Shown here piece after piece: positions 7,996 to 61,912 of a DNA stretch of 64,000 bases. Both the position numbers and the translations under genes were made by a program. The stretch is from an uncultured Candidatus Saccharibacteria bacterium (GTDB lineage: Bacteria; Patescibacteriota; Minisyncoccia; Phycocordibacterales; SBAW01), in the NCBI GenBank assembly GCA_964615415.1, contig CAZTNI010000002.1, forward strand, positions 4,873-68,872. The letters run 5' to 3'. A model generated the notes under the pieces. The model ran no database searches. It was not told the origin of the DNA and saw nothing but the letters and a program-made list of their open reading frames with translations. Position 1 is the first letter of the stretch, and every line of letters begins with the position of its first letter.

Positions 7996-10170
7996 CTACG
8001 CTGGCCACTGTTCGACCATAAGAAGGTCTTTCTTTCCTGGCATACTATCCCAAATTTCTTCTGTTACGAATGGCATAAATGGGTGGAGGAGTTTAAGCGA
8101 GTCAGAAAGTATGGCAATAAGCAGTCGTTTGCGCGAAGCAACTTCTTCCGCAGTGCCTGTTTTAAATATCTCCTTACTTTCTTCAAGAAGGTTTGCGGCA
8201 AAAATATCCCATACGTAGTGGTAGAGTTTTTCTGCGGCCATGTAGATGCGATATTCTTCCATGTCTTTGGTTGCATCTTGTGTAACTGCGTCGAATTGCG
8301 TCCAATACTCCTGATCTTTTGCTGTGTATGTAGTAGTACTATCTGCATCAGAAGCGTTTTCGAGGGTAAAACGAGTGATGTTCCAGAGTTTGTTAGAGAA
8401 AAGTTTATACCCGTTTATCTTTTGTTCATCAAATTTAACATCACTGCCGATAGCAGAGCCGACCATAAGTCCCATGCGCAGTGCGTCCGCGCCATATTTG
8501 TTGATGATATCGAGTGGGTCGACACCATTATTGAGTGACTTGCTAAACTTTCGTCCATCTTTTGCACGCACCAGACCGTGGATCAAGACTTTTTTAAACG
8601 GTACTTGCCCGAGGTGGAACCCGCTCATAAGTATCATGCGTGACACCCAAAGCGGCAGAATCTCGTACGCCGGCGACATGAACGACGTTGGATGGAACAC
8701 TTCAAGGTCTTTTGTTTTTTCTGGCCAGCCGAGGGTAGAAAATGTCCAGAGTGCGGAAGAAAACCAGGTGTCGAGTACGTCCTCGTCTTGATTCCAGCCA
8801 TCGCCCTTAGGTGCAGTAACTCCGCAATATACTTCTTTCCCCTTGTACCACACCGGAATACGGTGTCCGAACCAAATCTGGCGGCTGATGCACCAGTCGT
8901 GCAAGTTTTCTATCCAATGGAAATAGGTTTTACGAAAGCCTTCCTGTGGCATATCAACAGCGCCGCTTTCTACGGCCGCTTTCATCATCTGTGTCAGTGT
9001 GACGGTGCTGCCGCTTTTGATGCCGGGGATTTCGGAGTGGGGGATGGTAAATGGTTTATTAACGGCCACAAACCACTGTTCCATAATCTGCGGTTCAATA
9101 GTTGCTCCTGTGCGCTCTGAGGTTGCTATGTTGTGTACGTAATTGTCTTCAATTTTTACGACAAGACCTTTTTGTTGTAATTTTTCTACAATCTTCTCGC
9201 GAGCCTCGCTGATTTTCATGCCTGCAAACTCTCCAGCAATAGGAAGGAGCTTGCCGTATTTGTCGATAATCTGTTCTTTGTCGAGTTTATATTTTTCGGC
9301 CAACTCAAAGTCCACCATAGAGTGCCATGGGGTAATGGTCATGGCGCCCGTGCCTACTTCGGGGTCGCTCGCAGCGTCTTTAATAACAGTTGCAGTTATC
9401 GGGCCGTTGATCCACTCAAGGTCAATGGTTTGACCATGCGTAAATTCTTTGTAGCGAGGGTCGTCAGGGTGCACAACAATATATTTGTCACCAAACTTTG
9501 TTTCAGGACGGGCAGTGCCTATGGTGAACGGACCGTATTTGAAGTAATAAAACTTTGATTTCTCTTCTACGTATACAACTTCATCGTCAGAAATGGTGGT
9601 CTGCCCCTTTGGGTCCCAGTTAACGATGCGGTGGCCTTTGTAAATAAGCCCCGCGTCATACATATTTTTAAACGCGGTAAACACAGCTTTGTTGCGCGTT
9701 TCGTCCATCGTGTACGCGTAGCGTGACCAGTCGAGAGAAGCGCCCATACGACGCACTTGGGAGAGGATGGTGCTCTCGCTATTTTTAGCAAACTCATGGA
9801 CGCGGCGTACAAGTTCGTCGCGGCCAAGATCGTGACGACTCTTCCCTTCGTCTTTTTGAATATTTTTTTCTACACGGGCCTGGGTAGCAATTGCAGCAGA
9901 GTCTGTGCCAGGTATCCAAAGCGCTTTTTTGCCGCGCATGCGATGGAAGCGTATAACAATGTCTTGCAAGGTGTCTTCATATGCGTGACCCACATGCAAC
10001 GTGCCGGTGACGTTCGGCGGGGGAAGGACGACAGTAAATGGCTCGGTACGTTCACCAGGCAGGTTGTCTGGGTTAAAGTAGCCGCTTTGCTCCCATTTTT
10101 TATAGATTTCGCCCTCCACCTCTTGTGGGTTGTAGGGTTTTAAAAACTTCTCGGGCACCTGTTCACTCAT
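7996..10170 (-). CDS. valS: valyl-tRNA synthetase (short form, no C-terminal coiled coil)
   Basis: PPPNVTGTLHVGHA HIGH region, KFSKSLNN KMSKS motif, editing and anticodon-binding regions; 724 aa. Confidence 0.9.
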   Translation of the reverse strand: MSEQVPEKFLKPYNPQEVEGEIYKKWEQSGYFNPDNLPGERTEPFTVVLPPPNVTGTLHVGHAYEDTLQDIVIRFHRMRGKKALWIPGTDSAAIATQARVEKNIQKDEGKSRHDLGRDELVRRVHEFAKNSESTILSQVRRMGASLDWSRYAYTMDETRNKAVFTAFKNMYDAGLIYKGHRIVNWDPKGQTTISDDEVVYVEEKSKFYYFKYGPFTIGTARPETKFGDKYIVVHPDDPRYKEFTHGQTIDLEWINGPITATVIKDAASDPEVGTGAMTITPWHSMVDFELAEKYKLDKEQIIDKYGKLLPIAGEFAGMKISEAREKIVEKLQQKGLVVKIEDNYVHNIATSERTGATIEPQIMEQWFVAVNKPFTIPHSEIPGIKSGSTVTLTQMMKAAVESGAVDMPQEGFRKTYFHWIENLHDWCISRQIWFGHRIPVWYKGKEVYCGVTAPKGDGWNQDEDVLDTWFSSALWTFSTLGWPEKTKDLEVFHPTSFMSPAYEILPLWVSRMILMSGFHLGQVPFKKVLIHGLVRAKDGRKFSKSLNNGVDPLDIINKYGADALRMGLMVGSAIGSDVKFDEQKINGYKLFSNKLWNITRFTLENASDADSTTTYTAKDQEYWTQFDAVTQDATKDMEEYRIYMAAEKLYHYVWDIFAANLLEESKEIFKTGTAEEVASRKRLLIAILSDSLKLLHPFMPFVTEEIWDSMPGKKDLLMVEQWPA

Positions 10171-10221
10171 GTTGCAAATACTACGCCAAATAAGGCTTTT
10201 TTAGAAGGGTCAAGCAGACCC

Positions 10222-10250
10222 TTGACAAAATTTATGTATTGGTATATAAT
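10222..10250 (+). promoter_or_regulatory. consensus sigma70-type promoter (TTGACA-17-TATAAT)
   Basis: Exact TTGACA at 10222-10227, 17-nt spacer, exact TATAAT at 10245-10250. Confidence 0.6.
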
Positions 10251-10256
10251 TAAGTC

Positions 10257-10455
10257 AGGAAGATAGGATAGTTCTTGGGCCGATGCGGAGGTTCCGACCT
10301 TCAGCGTGACGCCGAGAAGACAGTTCTTATCGATATATTGGTCGGGATTATACTAACCGGCTAATTTCTCTCAGGAAATTCCAGAGAGATCGATATAGAA
10401 AGGAAGCATCCTTCTTCCACTCCATTCGACCCGTCACATTGTGGCGGGTCTTTTA
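10257..10455 (+). ncRNA. candidate small RNA (about 200 nt), identity unknown
   Basis: Bounded by a perfect consensus promoter and a strong intrinsic terminator. No plausible ORF. Internal direct repeats (AGTTCTT x2, ATCGATATA x2) and a GGAAGCA motif. Confidence 0.4.
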
Positions 10456-10458
10456 TTT
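10428..10458. terminator. rho-independent terminator (bidirectional; serves tsaD and the sRNA candidate)
   Basis: GACCCGTCAC-ATT-GTGGCGGGTC 10-bp stem followed by TTTTATTTTT, with an A-rich flank on the other side. Confidence 0.7.
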
Positions 10459-11544
10459 TTGTATAGAGAGATTACCGACTGCGCGGAAGTCCTCGGTTGT
10501 GGCGTCTTGTTTGCCGGACAGAGCGCGGGCAAGCGCTGCTTCGGCGATCATGATCGCGTTGTCGCCGGTTATAGAAAGTTCGGGCAGGCGGAATTCTACT
10601 TCAGGGAAATCTTTTGTAACTAATTCTTGCAATTTTTGGCGTAAAAATTTGTTTGCTGCAACGCCACCGCCAATCACAAAGGTTTGTGCGCCAGTTTCCT
10701 CAAGTGCTTTCCGGGTTTTTGCTACCAATACATCCGCTACCGCATCTTCAAACTCTTGCGCAAACGCTGCTTTTTCGTCGTCGTTCAATTCTTTACCCTT
10801 GAGTGCATACAAAGCTGCAGTTTTGAGGCCAGAAAAAGAGACGTCGCAGGTGTTTGTGCCAATCATAGGACGTGGAAGCCGAACGGAAAAATTTTCAGCC
10901 AAAGGTCCTCGGTTCTCCTCGAGGACTCGGCCAGACCTTGTGTCTGCTAATTTTTCCGTTCGGCTTTTCTCTGCTAATTTTGAAATGTGTGGGCCGCCTG
11001 GGTAGGGCAAGTTAAGCATGCGTGCCACTTTGTCGAACGCTTCGCCGACGGCGTCGTCTAATGTTTCGCCAATTTTTTCGTACTGGAACCATTCGCGCAT
11101 CAAAACAAACTCGGTGTGGCCGCCAGAAATAAGAAGGGCGAGGACGGGGAGCTGCACGTTTTCTAATTTTCCGTCGCGAACAAGAGAAGAAAGAAGGTGG
11201 CCCTCCATGTGGTTGGCCGGAATAAGAGACAAGTTCTTTTCTTGTGCAATTTGTTTCGCAAACGTAATGCCGGTCCACAGTGCTGGTTCGAGGCCAGGAC
11301 CTTGAGTTACCGCAATTGCATCGACTTCTTCATTTTTAAATTCTTCAAAGAGGACAGGAAGGTTTATTTGGTGTTCGCGCTTGGCGAGGTTGGGGTACAC
11401 GCCGCCATACTGTGCATGGAGCTGTGCTTGCGAGAGGAGGGCGTTTTTAAGTACAGAAAAAGAGAAACCGCCTTCGGTTTTGGTTCCTTCAACAAGAGCG
11501 ATGCCAGTTTCATCGCACGAGGTTTCGATCGCAAGAATTTTCAT
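10453..11544 (-). CDS. tsaD: tRNA N6-adenosine threonylcarbamoyltransferase TsaD (Kae1/Gcp)
   Basis: MKILAIETSCDETGIALVEG N-terminus and an ASKHA-fold; start taken at the internal Met because the longer ORF overlaps tRNA-Val. Confidence 0.9.
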   Translation of the reverse strand: MKILAIETSCDETGIALVEGTKTEGGFSFSVLKNALLSQAQLHAQYGGVYPNLAKREHQINLPVLFEEFKNEEVDAIAVTQGPGLEPALWTGITFAKQIAQEKNLSLIPANHMEGHLLSSLVRDGKLENVQLPVLALLISGGHTEFVLMREWFQYEKIGETLDDAVGEAFDKVARMLNLPYPGGPHISKLAEKSRTEKLADTRSGRVLEENRGPLAENFSVRLPRPMIGTNTCDVSFSGLKTAALYALKGKELNDDEKAAFAQEFEDAVADVLVAKTRKALEETGAQTFVIGGGVAANKFLRQKLQELVTKDFPEVEFRLPELSITGDNAIMIAEAALARALSGKQDATTEDFRAVGNLSIQK

Positions 11545-11620
11545 TGGTGCGCGGTAAGGGACTTGAACCCCTGGCCCTCCCCACGTCAAGGGGATGCTCT
11601 ACCAACTGAGCTAACCGCGC
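11545..11620 (-). tRNA. tRNA-Val (anticodon GAC)
   Basis: 76 nt with CCA; anticodon loop TTGACGT; acceptor GCGCGGT/ACCGCGC; abuts the tsaD start codon. Confidence 0.85.
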
Positions 11621-14167: not shown

Positions 14168-14195
14168 TTGACAAAATGATATAAAGGTGTATAAT
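14168..14195 (+). promoter_or_regulatory. sigma70-type promoter (TTGACA-16-TATAAT)
   Basis: Exact -35 and -10 hexamers 50 nt upstream of the 14246 ORF. Confidence 0.55.
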
Positions 14196-14245
14196 TAAAC
14201 AGTAAGTCCTTCCCGTTTCGGGGCAATAAACAACAGGAGACCGTC

Positions 14246-14527
14246 TTGGATTTCATCGCTCAGTATTGGTGGTTGTGGCTCATTGGCCTGCTAATCTTTG
14301 GCGGGTTGATGACCATCAATCAGCGTCGTCGCGTACGAGGCATGATGCGGCCGATGTCGAATTTCCCCTCGAACCTTTCCTTCGGGGAATTCGACAAGAG
14401 CTTCCAGCAAGCCGCCGACAGCTTCCAGAAGGGCTTCGGCTCGATGATGCTGTTCTGGGTTCTGTTCGTTGCCTCTGGCGTTCTTCTACTCATCTCTGTG
14501 GTCGTCAACATTTTCCAGGCGATCTAG
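14246..14527 (+). CDS. small 2-TM membrane protein, paralog of the 13650 gene
   Basis: W-rich first helix (WWLWLIGLLIFGGLMTINQRRRVR versus WVWFLAGIAIFGVLAMYSSRRHRQ in the paralog); own promoter and terminator. Confidence 0.5.
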   Translation: MDFIAQYWWLWLIGLLIFGGLMTINQRRRVRGMMRPMSNFPSNLSFGEFDKSFQQAADSFQKGFGSMMLFWVLFVASGVLLLISVVVNIFQAI

Positions 14528-14549
14528 CCTAGATCAAACGACACAGAGA

Positions 14550-14580
14550 AAGCCGCTGCCTTAACAAGCAGCGGCTTTCG
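14550..14580. terminator. rho-independent terminator (bidirectional)
   Basis: AAGCCGCTGC-cttaacaa-GCAGCGGCTT perfect 10-bp stem followed by TTCGATTT. Confidence 0.65.
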
Positions 14581-14649
14581 ATTTCGCCACCTGGCGATCA
14601 TGGTGGGCAAAAGAAAATACCGCCCGAAGGCGGCACTTTCTTTTACCCA

Positions 14650-14772: not shown

Positions 14773-14900
14773 GGAGAGATGGCTGAGTGGATCAAAGACA
14801 AACTGCTTTGTCTTTGATCCAGTGCCTGTGGCAAGCGCCGTTGTGAGCTTGCGAACAGGCGCTCGGTGGGCGAACTGGTTCGAACACCCAGTCCTCTCCA
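14773..14900 (+). ncRNA. aberrant tRNA-Ser-like element (128 nt) with a 28-nt palindromic insertion
   Basis: The first 18 nt are identical to the downstream tRNA-Ser (GGAGAGATGGCTGAGTGG). The acceptor 3' strand (CCTCTCC) and a T-arm-like stem (ACTGG/CCAGT) are present. The D-loop carries a perfect 12-bp hairpin, ATCAAAGACAAA-CTGC-TTTGTCTTTGAT, and the anticodon region is expanded. Confidence 0.35.
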
Positions 14901-14919
14901 GTACAGATACAAAGTATCT

Positions 14920-15009
14920 GGAGAGATGGCTGAGTGGTCGAAGGCACCGCACTCGAAATGCGGCGTACCCGAAAGGGTACCGTGAGTTCGAATCTCACTC
15001 TCTCCGCCA
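14920..15009 (+). tRNA. tRNA-Ser (anticodon CGA)
   Basis: 90 nt with CCA; anticodon loop CTCGAAA; long variable arm GTACCCGAAAGGGTACC. Confidence 0.9.
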
Positions 15010-61563: not shown

Positions 61564-61592
61564 TTGACAAATCCGTTGTTTGGGTGTATAAT
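61564..61592 (+). promoter_or_regulatory. consensus sigma70-type promoter (TTGACA-17-TATAAT)
   Basis: Exact hexamers at 61564-61569 and 61587-61592. Confidence 0.55.
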
Positions 61593-61619
61593 AAAGGGGT
61601 AAGCACTTTCTCTTGGGAG

Positions 61620-61811
61620 ATGGAAATGGACGAAGAAGAAGTTGCTCGTATCCGCAATGAAGGTGTCCTCGAGATCAAACTCGAAAATGATCTGATGGAT
61701 CTTGATGTTCTGATGGCGGTTGCCAGGGATATCTTTCCGGAAGGTCGTCTCGTTATGACACTTCATCCTAACAAGACTGGTGTGCGTATCCTTAGTCTTG
61801 CTTCTGCGTAG
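61620..61811 (+). CDS. small acidic hypothetical protein (about 62 aa)
   Basis: Shine-Dalgarno GGGAG before ATG; MEMDEEEVARIRNEGVLEIKLEND...; followed by a bidirectional terminator. Confidence 0.4.
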   Translation: MEMDEEEVARIRNEGVLEIKLENDLMDLDVLMAVARDIFPEGRLVMTLHPNKTGVRILSLASA

Positions 61812-61884
61812 AGACAACTAGTCGAGCTCCATCTGACCTACTTCTAGGAATATCGAACTTGGGAAATATGACCCCCTGAAAGCC

Positions 61885-61912
61885 GCCTCCAACTCTGTTG
61901 GGGGCTTTCTTA
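61885..61912. terminator. bidirectional rho-independent terminator
   Basis: GCCTCCAAC-tct-GTTGGGGGC followed by TTTCTTATT; serves both topA and the small + strand gene. Confidence 0.65.

Follow-up and report, generated by a model that had tools for sequence, protein, structure and literature searches.

A perfect consensus promoter followed by a strong terminator, with no evident gene between them, raises the question of what product, if any, such a unit makes. A unit of this kind had been described in an earlier note at 10222–10458 of the 64,000-nt stretch of DNA analysed here (hereafter the window), where it was read as an orphan transcription unit and a small RNA (sRNA) candidate, possibly 6S RNA. 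Our analysis, which was confined to sequence, bears out the orphan unit and its sRNA candidacy, because a promoter and a unidirectional terminator enclose a segment whose structured strand matches their direction and which holds no significant ORF. The suggestion of 6S RNA did not survive.

Judged from its protein matches, the source genome belongs to the Patescibacteria (CPR), and among these to the Parcubacteria/Paceibacterota type. The best matches of ValS were MAGs of Parcubacteria/Paceibacterota, with identities of at most 79% among GTDB genomes and at most 85% over the N-terminal half among metagenome contigs. The nearest TsaD among 5.8 billion database proteins was only 80% identical, and there is therefore no close relative by which drift could be judged.

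Locus, promoter and terminator

The candidate unit lies on the + strand in the 282-nt spacer between valS (7996–10170) and tsaD (10453–11544), both of which are on the − strand and antiparallel to it. The true start of tsaD is the ATG at 11544, since the mechanical TTG start at 11589 overlaps tRNA-Val. The gene for tRNA-Val(gac) (11545–11620, − strand) directly adjoins this start codon; the − strand order is tRNA-Val, tsaD, the insert and valS, and the genes for a cognate tRNA and synthetase are thus linked. The spacer sequence was 100% identical in independent Logan assemblies from other sequencing runs, which excludes an assembly artefact. The transcription signals of the spacer, with a palindrome beside them, are as follows.

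10205–10223, no strand: palindrome AAGGGTC-aagca-GACCCTT, the core of inverted repeat I1, abutting the −35 hexamer
10222–10250, + strand: sigma-70 promoter, with TTGACA at 10222–10227, a 17-nt spacer and TATAAT at 10245–10250, matching the consensus at 12 of 12 positions
10347–10374, − strand: promoter-like site on the opposite strand, with CTGAGA, 16 nt and TATAAT, matching the consensus at only 10 of 12 positions
10428–10460, + strand: intrinsic terminator, with a 10-bp stem and an AUU loop, then UUUUAUUUUU

The promoter is exactly the one that the earlier note had reported. The window holds only three promoters with 12/12 matches, where dinucleotide shuffles predict 0.01, indicating that the organism uses canonical sigma-70 promoters and that the match is not due to chance. 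The palindrome next to the promoter may be a candidate operator or an insertion scar.

The GC-rich hairpin of 10 bp with a T-run, which had also been noticed before, was found again and starts ~180 nt past the promoter. Its stem, GACCCGTCAC-ATT-GTGGCGGGTC at 10428–10450, has 10 pairs (7 of them G-C) with a pair probability of 1.00 and is followed by TTTTATTTTT. The terminator scan gave a match on the + strand only, and on the − strand the hairpin runs into GAAUGGAG. The U-tract overlaps the stop codon of tsaD (10453–10455), a gene without a terminator in its own (−) direction. On the − strand, the scan found no terminator between the opposite-strand promoter-like site (10374..10347) and valS.

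The other two 12/12 promoters were rejected as heads of sister RNA units, since both drive small proteins. One of these units (14168–14640, + strand) encodes a 93-aa two-helix membrane ORFan with an AGGAG-6 nt-TTG start, and the other (61564–61905, + strand) encodes an acidic ORF of ~63 aa with its own terminator. Both are small, stand-alone, + strand units wedged between − strand genes. A sequence flavour, TTGACAAA...GGT[A/G]TATAAT, is common to all three promoters. Perfect promoters may be the marks of recently acquired small accessory genes in this genome.

Predicted fold and coding potential

The predicted transcript and its structural parts, together with the one complete reading frame in it, are listed below.

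10257–10458, + strand: predicted transcript of ~200 nt, its ends inferred from the promoter and terminator geometry
10258–10269, + strand: 5′ strand of helix P1 (GGAAGA-U-AGGAU), purine-rich and SD-like, pairing with 10408–10418 at probabilities of 0.96–0.99
10408–10418, + strand: 3′ strand of helix P1 (AUCCU-UCUUCC), pyrimidine-rich and anti-SD-like
10273–10317, + strand: hairpin P2, with helices of 6 bp and 10 bp (the latter bulged once) on the two sides of a 4 × 4 internal loop, and a UCCG loop
10324–10400, + strand: domain P3, with probabilities of 0.78–0.99 and an 11-bp stem formed by two copies of an ATCGATA palindrome
10419–10427, + strand: linker ACUCCAUUC, which joins the body to the terminator and is unpaired in the MFE and centroid structures
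10275–10364, + strand: 29-codon TTG ORF (MGRCGGSDLQRDAEKTVLIDILVGIILTG), with AGGA 6 nt upstream

The segment 10257–10452 had an MFE of −78.6 kcal/mol (z = −5.49), and none of 200 dinucleotide shuffles folded as well. Without the terminator, the body (10257–10420) had an MFE of −60.7 kcal/mol (z = −4.04). The predicted architecture was a closed three-way junction of P1, P2 and P3, in which P1 clamps the 5′ and 3′ ends. The centroid nearly equals the MFE structure, and helix probabilities were mostly 0.9–1.0. The pair probabilities of P2 were 0.62, 0.99 and 0.96, and this hairpin includes G-U pairs specific to the + strand. P3 encloses P3a (10337–10365, with an 11-nt loop) and P3b (10368–10388), and the repeats related to it are D3 and the inverted repeats I3 and I5.

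An alternative to the pairing of the P1 3′ strand is the local hairpin GGAAG-CAUCCUU-CUUCC (10402–10418). This hairpin was among the internal motifs pointed out previously, all of which are present: AGTTCTT occurs twice, within repeat family D1, ATCGATATA also occurs twice (D3), and GGAAGCA was found as well. The inverted repeat I2 (13 nt, 77% complementary) is weak and lies near both ends of the insert. GGA motifs, counted by hand, numbered 6 against ~3.5 expected; this is unremarkable, and a CsrA-type enrichment of such motifs was rejected.

The complementary strand folded 9.7 kcal/mol worse (z = −3.03) and with a different topology, and seven G-U pairs are specific to the + strand. The structured strand is therefore the one in the direction of the promoter and terminator. 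A strongly negative folding z can also stem from palindromes at the DNA level, and the reverse strand still has a z of −3.0. The mRNAs behind the other two 12/12 promoters were less structured (z = −1.5 and −2.8) and had diffuse ensembles. The tsaD–valS spacers of relatives were mostly unstructured, with z near 0, and a few held structured elements of different architecture.

The 29-codon ORF is the sole complete ORF in the unit, and its SD-like motif and start codon both lie inside helices. ORFs of at least 29 codons occurred in 30% of dinucleotide shuffles, and ORFs of this length with an SD-like motif occurred in 7%. The earlier view that the segment holds no credible ORF thus stands in the sense that none is significant, but a TTG frame behind an AGGA motif does exist. 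The 29-aa peptide has a hydrophobic run of 11–14 residues, including an Asp, and a 19-residue Kyte-Doolittle mean of 1.05. No membrane helix was predicted, because the hydrophobic stretch is too short. The ORF had no match in Pfam or PADLOC, was not called by gene callers in the Logan contigs, and had no second copy within the 64-kb window. Coding by this ORF is possible but unsupported.

Elsewhere in the window, a cloverleaf-like RNA of ~130 nt (14773–14902, + strand; MFE −66.6 kcal/mol, z = −6.15) lies immediately upstream of tRNA-Ser(cga) (14920–15009). The 18 nt at the start of that tRNA (GGAGAGATGGCTGAGTGG) recur in it, a TTCGAA motif in it resembles a T-loop, and its 3′ acceptor strand matches, but its arms are greatly expanded and include a 14-bp perfect hairpin. 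It was called neither by ARAGORN nor by Rfam. Possible identities are an RNA that derives from a tRNA or resembles one, and a tRNA that is degenerate or carries an insertion.

Known RNA families and the tsaD–valS junction

Whether the transcript belongs to a known family was one of the checks that the earlier note had proposed, with 6S and SRP RNA among the models named. A search of the whole window with Rfam 15 gave no family match for the unit at the gathering score. At E ≤ 10 with permissive filters, the region 10150–10480, searched on both strands, gave terminator-type partial matches only. Even at this threshold there was no Rfam match for SRP RNA, tmRNA or RNase P RNA, in line with the previous failure to assign the unit to any of them by eye. 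The GGAAGCA motif bears a superficial likeness to domain IV of SRP RNA (a GNRA tetraloop on a short stem beside an AGG/AGCA symmetric loop), and GAAAGGAAGCA stands at 10398–10408, but the UAUA 5′ of GAAA cannot close the tetraloop stem. For tmRNA, ARAGORN found none, and at ~200 nt the transcript is too short for either tmRNA or RNase P RNA. A T-box or other riboswitch was likewise rejected, as Rfam gave no match on either strand and T-box motif stems did not close by eye. A cis-regulator of a + strand gene does not fit, since no such gene lies downstream and the unit, closed by a terminator, points towards the 3′ end of tsaD. Nor does a − strand valS leader, since it is the + strand, antisense to valS, that the structure favours.

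6S RNA (RF00013 and related models) resembles the candidate in its length class and its stem closing the 5′ and 3′ ends. The strong housekeeping-type promoter is a further likeness, which here concerns expected expression only. No 6S covariance model matched at the gathering score, or at E ≤ 10 on either strand of 10150–10480. 6S RNA is a rod with a central bubble, whereas the candidate is a branched junction: the best unbranched fold of the body had −38.4 kcal/mol, 22 kcal/mol worse than the branched fold at −60.7 kcal/mol and no better than the shuffle mean of −42.9 kcal/mol. The candidate also differs from 6S RNA in its lack of conservation among relatives and in its location, a hotspot for accessory insertions (see below). 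In its bearing on a clade-wide housekeeping 6S RNA, the unit was absent from the tsaD/valS neighbourhood of every relative searched.

Homologues were sought in the valS/tsaD neighbourhoods of 152 loci (60 from GTDB, 80 from metagenomes and 12 close TsaD/ValS contexts; ~1 Mb). The unit was present in no relative at this locus, so that the lack of conservation which the earlier note had named as refuting its reading was observed within these neighbourhoods. Neither nhmmer nor blastn found a homologue in the 152 loci, and a single-sequence covariance model found no second copy in the window and ~1 Mb of loci. Against phages and plasmids, blastn found nothing beyond the promoter consensus, and a search of IMG/VR viral contigs with the exact hairpin motifs gave no second copy; a phage, plasmid or viral origin was rejected on these results. 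No homologue was found in the searched loci, phages, plasmids or viral contigs, and the sRNA reading therefore has no support from covariation or conservation. Within the 64-kb window, there was no paralogue of the unit and no trans target with complementarity of more than 11 nt.

Alignment of the junctions divided the spacer into an old and a new part.

10171–10207, − strand: ancestral tsaD–valS spacer block, adjoining valS and aligning with the loci L147, L065 and L146
10208–10452, + strand: lineage-specific insertion (~245 nt), bounded by the tsaD stop codon on one side and by the ancestral spacer on the other

The retained ancestral spacer next to valS reads GCCTTATTTTGACGTAGTATTTGC...ATG, which places the ~245-nt insertion right after the tsaD stop codon. 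The order of tsaD followed by valS is widely conserved. In all close relatives the two genes overlap (L144, TsaD 80% identical) or lie 14–28 nt apart, with spacers of 14–15 nt in L148–L152, 14 nt in L064, 25 nt in L065 and 28 nt in L147.

Two relatives carry other cargo in the same slot. The locus L146 (TsaD 73%) has the same ancestral block and a promoter, TTGATA-17-TATAAT, which stands 51 nt from the valS ATG as it does in the window and drives an unrelated 143-aa ORFan. The slot of L145 holds another unrelated ORF of at least 77 aa in the same orientation. In the window, L145 and L146 alike, the terminator hairpin of the cargo abuts the tsaD stop codon. These cassettes share with the candidate their slot and their orientation on the strand opposite to tsaD and valS, but they encode proteins (143 aa and at least 77 aa), whereas the window cargo is most likely non-coding and is unrelated in sequence. 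The L145 and L146 cargo proteins had no Pfam or PADLOC family. A decayed copy of their cargo was rejected, as no protein or DNA similarity extended beyond the −10 hexamer (local score 25, against 22.4 ± 3.6 in shuffles).

Among 82 syntenic tsaD–valS junctions drawn from loci L001–L152, 36 were tight (≤100 nt) and 46 were expanded (>100 nt, up to 3.2 kb). Most of the expanded junctions contain ORFs, frequently on the opposite strand; except in near-identical genomes, these ORFs are unrelated to one another. A single conserved opposite-strand gene in the slot was therefore rejected. The survey indicated that, across Parcubacteria, the tsaD–valS site is a recurrent hotspot of insertion whose accessory cargo varies in kind. 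No known RNA was found in the same slot of relatives, and the window cargo is unusual for the hotspot in being, most likely, non-coding.

Three further observations concern this junction. In L121 (2329–2479), the same slot holds an insert with a 28-bp perfect inverted repeat flanking a ~45-nt GC-rich core and an 11-bp A/U hairpin (z about −9), which looks MITE-like. An imperfect direct repeat lies at the ends of the window insert, GACCCTTGACA (10217–10229) and GACCCGTCACA (10428–10438), with 9 of 11 positions identical; one copy overlaps the −35 hexamer and the other the 5′ arm of the terminator. At the two equivalent positions, L146 carries an 8-nt direct repeat of another sequence (GCAGGGCC). 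Such end repeats may be due to chance or may be the trace of an insertion or cassette-exchange mechanism. The motif TAGTAT stands 7 nt before the valS ATG in the window (− strand), L147, L065 and L146, with no SD-like motif, and its equivalent in L148, L149 and L151 is TAAGAT, 6 nt before the ATG. From its position, TAGTAT may be an internal promoter, within the 3′ end of tsaD, from which valS would be transcribed as a leaderless mRNA.

Explanations for the unit

The consensus promoter, the putatively transcribed segment and the one-directional terminator form a compact + strand unit inserted in an otherwise tight tsaD–valS junction. We give roughly even odds (a probability of about 0.5) to the reading that this unit is an accessory gene, complete in itself and specific to the strain, whose product is a structured and most likely non-coding small RNA of ~200 nt. 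It is plausible that the candidate belongs to a known class, the stand-alone bacterial sRNA genes. It is like them in its consensus promoter, its structured ~200-nt transcript and its terminator hairpin with a U-tract, and also in its lack of a significant ORF and its narrow, lineage-specific distribution, which is common for sRNAs. It differs from them in that it belongs to no known family and in that its body is almost fully paired, leaving little single-stranded sequence.

If the unit is an sRNA gene, RNA polymerase would start near A10257 and be released at the U-tract at ~10455–10460, and the product would probably be an abundant and stable RNA. Such an RNA could act as a riboregulator, and base pairing would be its likeliest mode. 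Few segments are exposed in the predicted fold, and those that could pair with a target or contact a protein would be the linker ACUCCAUUC, which is CU-rich, the purine-rich junction AGGAAGC and the P3a loop of 11 nt; the linker is a candidate seed region. As tsaD has no terminator in its own direction, transcription of the unit would converge on tsaD read-through and be fully complementary to it. This convergence may insulate valS, whose own promoter seems to have been preserved in the ancestral part of the spacer.

The same arrangement could have arisen if an accessory protein cassette like that of L146 had lost its coding part, so that the promoter, fragments of the UTRs and the terminator remained, transcribed and functionless. 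The positionally matching promoter and common upstream block of L146 fit such a history, albeit in front of a 143-aa ORFan cargo, as do the heterogeneous and mostly protein-coding cargo of the hotspot and the occurrence of the unit as a singleton without conservation. A relic of this kind is unlikely, however: no residual similarity to the L145 and L146 cargo extends beyond the −10 hexamer (25 against 22.4 ± 3.6), most relatives' spacers have z near 0, and a z of −4 to −5.5, a well-defined fold and strand-specific G-U pairs are not expected of a neutral remnant. The transcript might instead be the mRNA of a small protein, the 29-aa ORF at 10275–10364, with the P1 clamp and P2 sequestering AGGA and the start codon; to this we assign a somewhat smaller chance than to a relic. 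Sequestration of the SD and start codon by a 5′–3′ clamp is the logic of type I toxin mRNAs (hok, aapA1), and in the predicted fold P1 does sequester the SD-like motif, with the TTG inside P2. As in hok/sok and aapA1/IsoA1, an SD-like 5′ end pairs with a pyrimidine-rich, anti-SD-like 3′ segment, and the candidate is likewise a small, highly structured RNA with a tiny ORF in a lineage-specific intergenic insertion. The 10/12 promoter-like site on the opposite strand could supply an antisense RNA. In addition, the AGGA-6 nt-TTG geometry equals that of AGGAG-6 nt-TTG behind the second perfect promoter, and both of the other perfect promoters drive small proteins. The small hydrophobic peptide with a transmembrane helix that marks type I toxins was not found in the 29 aa, since the 11–14-residue hydrophobic segment includes an Asp and no membrane helix is predicted. 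The candidate differs from these systems also in its statistically unremarkable ORF (30% of shuffles for length, 7% with the SD-like motif) and in its single copy. No bounded antisense RNA is definable, as the antisense transcript would meet no terminator before valS. The lack of a Pfam or PADLOC match, of a gene call in the Logan contigs and of a second copy in the window also speaks against a small-protein mRNA.

A third possibility would place the significance of the insert in the DNA itself, as a MITE-like or recombination-derived insertion whose inverted repeats mimic RNA structure and whose promoter and terminator are incidental. The perfect 28-bp inverted-repeat element of L121 in the same slot, the derivation of the P3 stem from two palindrome copies, the weak I2 repeat near both insert ends and the fold of the reverse strand (z −3.0) are consistent with it. 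We hold it to be improbable, as the insert occurs once in the window and in none of the loci, folds into a branched junction and not one long hairpin, and has + strand G-U pairs and an advantage of ~10 kcal/mol on that strand, and as a 12/12 promoter and a one-way terminator in the correct order and orientation are very unlikely to be incidental. The RNAs of CPR bacteria are often divergent, so that a known RNA (6S, SRP, tmRNA, RNase P, or a T-box or other riboswitch) might have been missed by the Rfam models, and a length of ~165–200 nt with a closed 5′/3′ stem is compatible with 6S-sized RNAs. We consider this scarcely credible, given that no family matched at the gathering score or at E ≤ 10 on either strand, that the unbranched rod (−38.4 against −60.7 kcal/mol, with a shuffle mean of −42.9) is unfavourable, that SRP domain IV does not close and that ARAGORN found no tmRNA. 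The insertion is moreover recent, missing at this site in all close relatives and located in a hotspot of accessory cargo, and a cis-regulator would have no + strand gene downstream to act on.

Returning to a structured sRNA gene as the preferred reading, a bolder version of it is that CPR bacteria have a class of structured RNAs carried on cassettes which has gone unrecognised, and that this RNA is its first member, an accessory functional RNA placed behind a shared strong promoter module. This is a long shot. Such RNAs could be protein-sequestering, of the defence or addiction type, or small ribozymes, and could be carried in the way the ORFans of the hotspot are. A literature search on regulatory RNAs in CPR/Patescibacteria returned essentially nothing relevant.

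CPR/Patescibacteria are uncultivated bacteria with very small genomes and few recognisable regulators. As a singleton without a functional handle, the RNA described here is of limited importance in itself, but a strongly promoted and strongly structured orphan RNA gene offers a concrete candidate for metatranscriptomic validation. The tsaD–valS hotspot with its unrelated small cargos may be more useful than the single RNA, as it suggests where these reduced genomes take up accessory functions.
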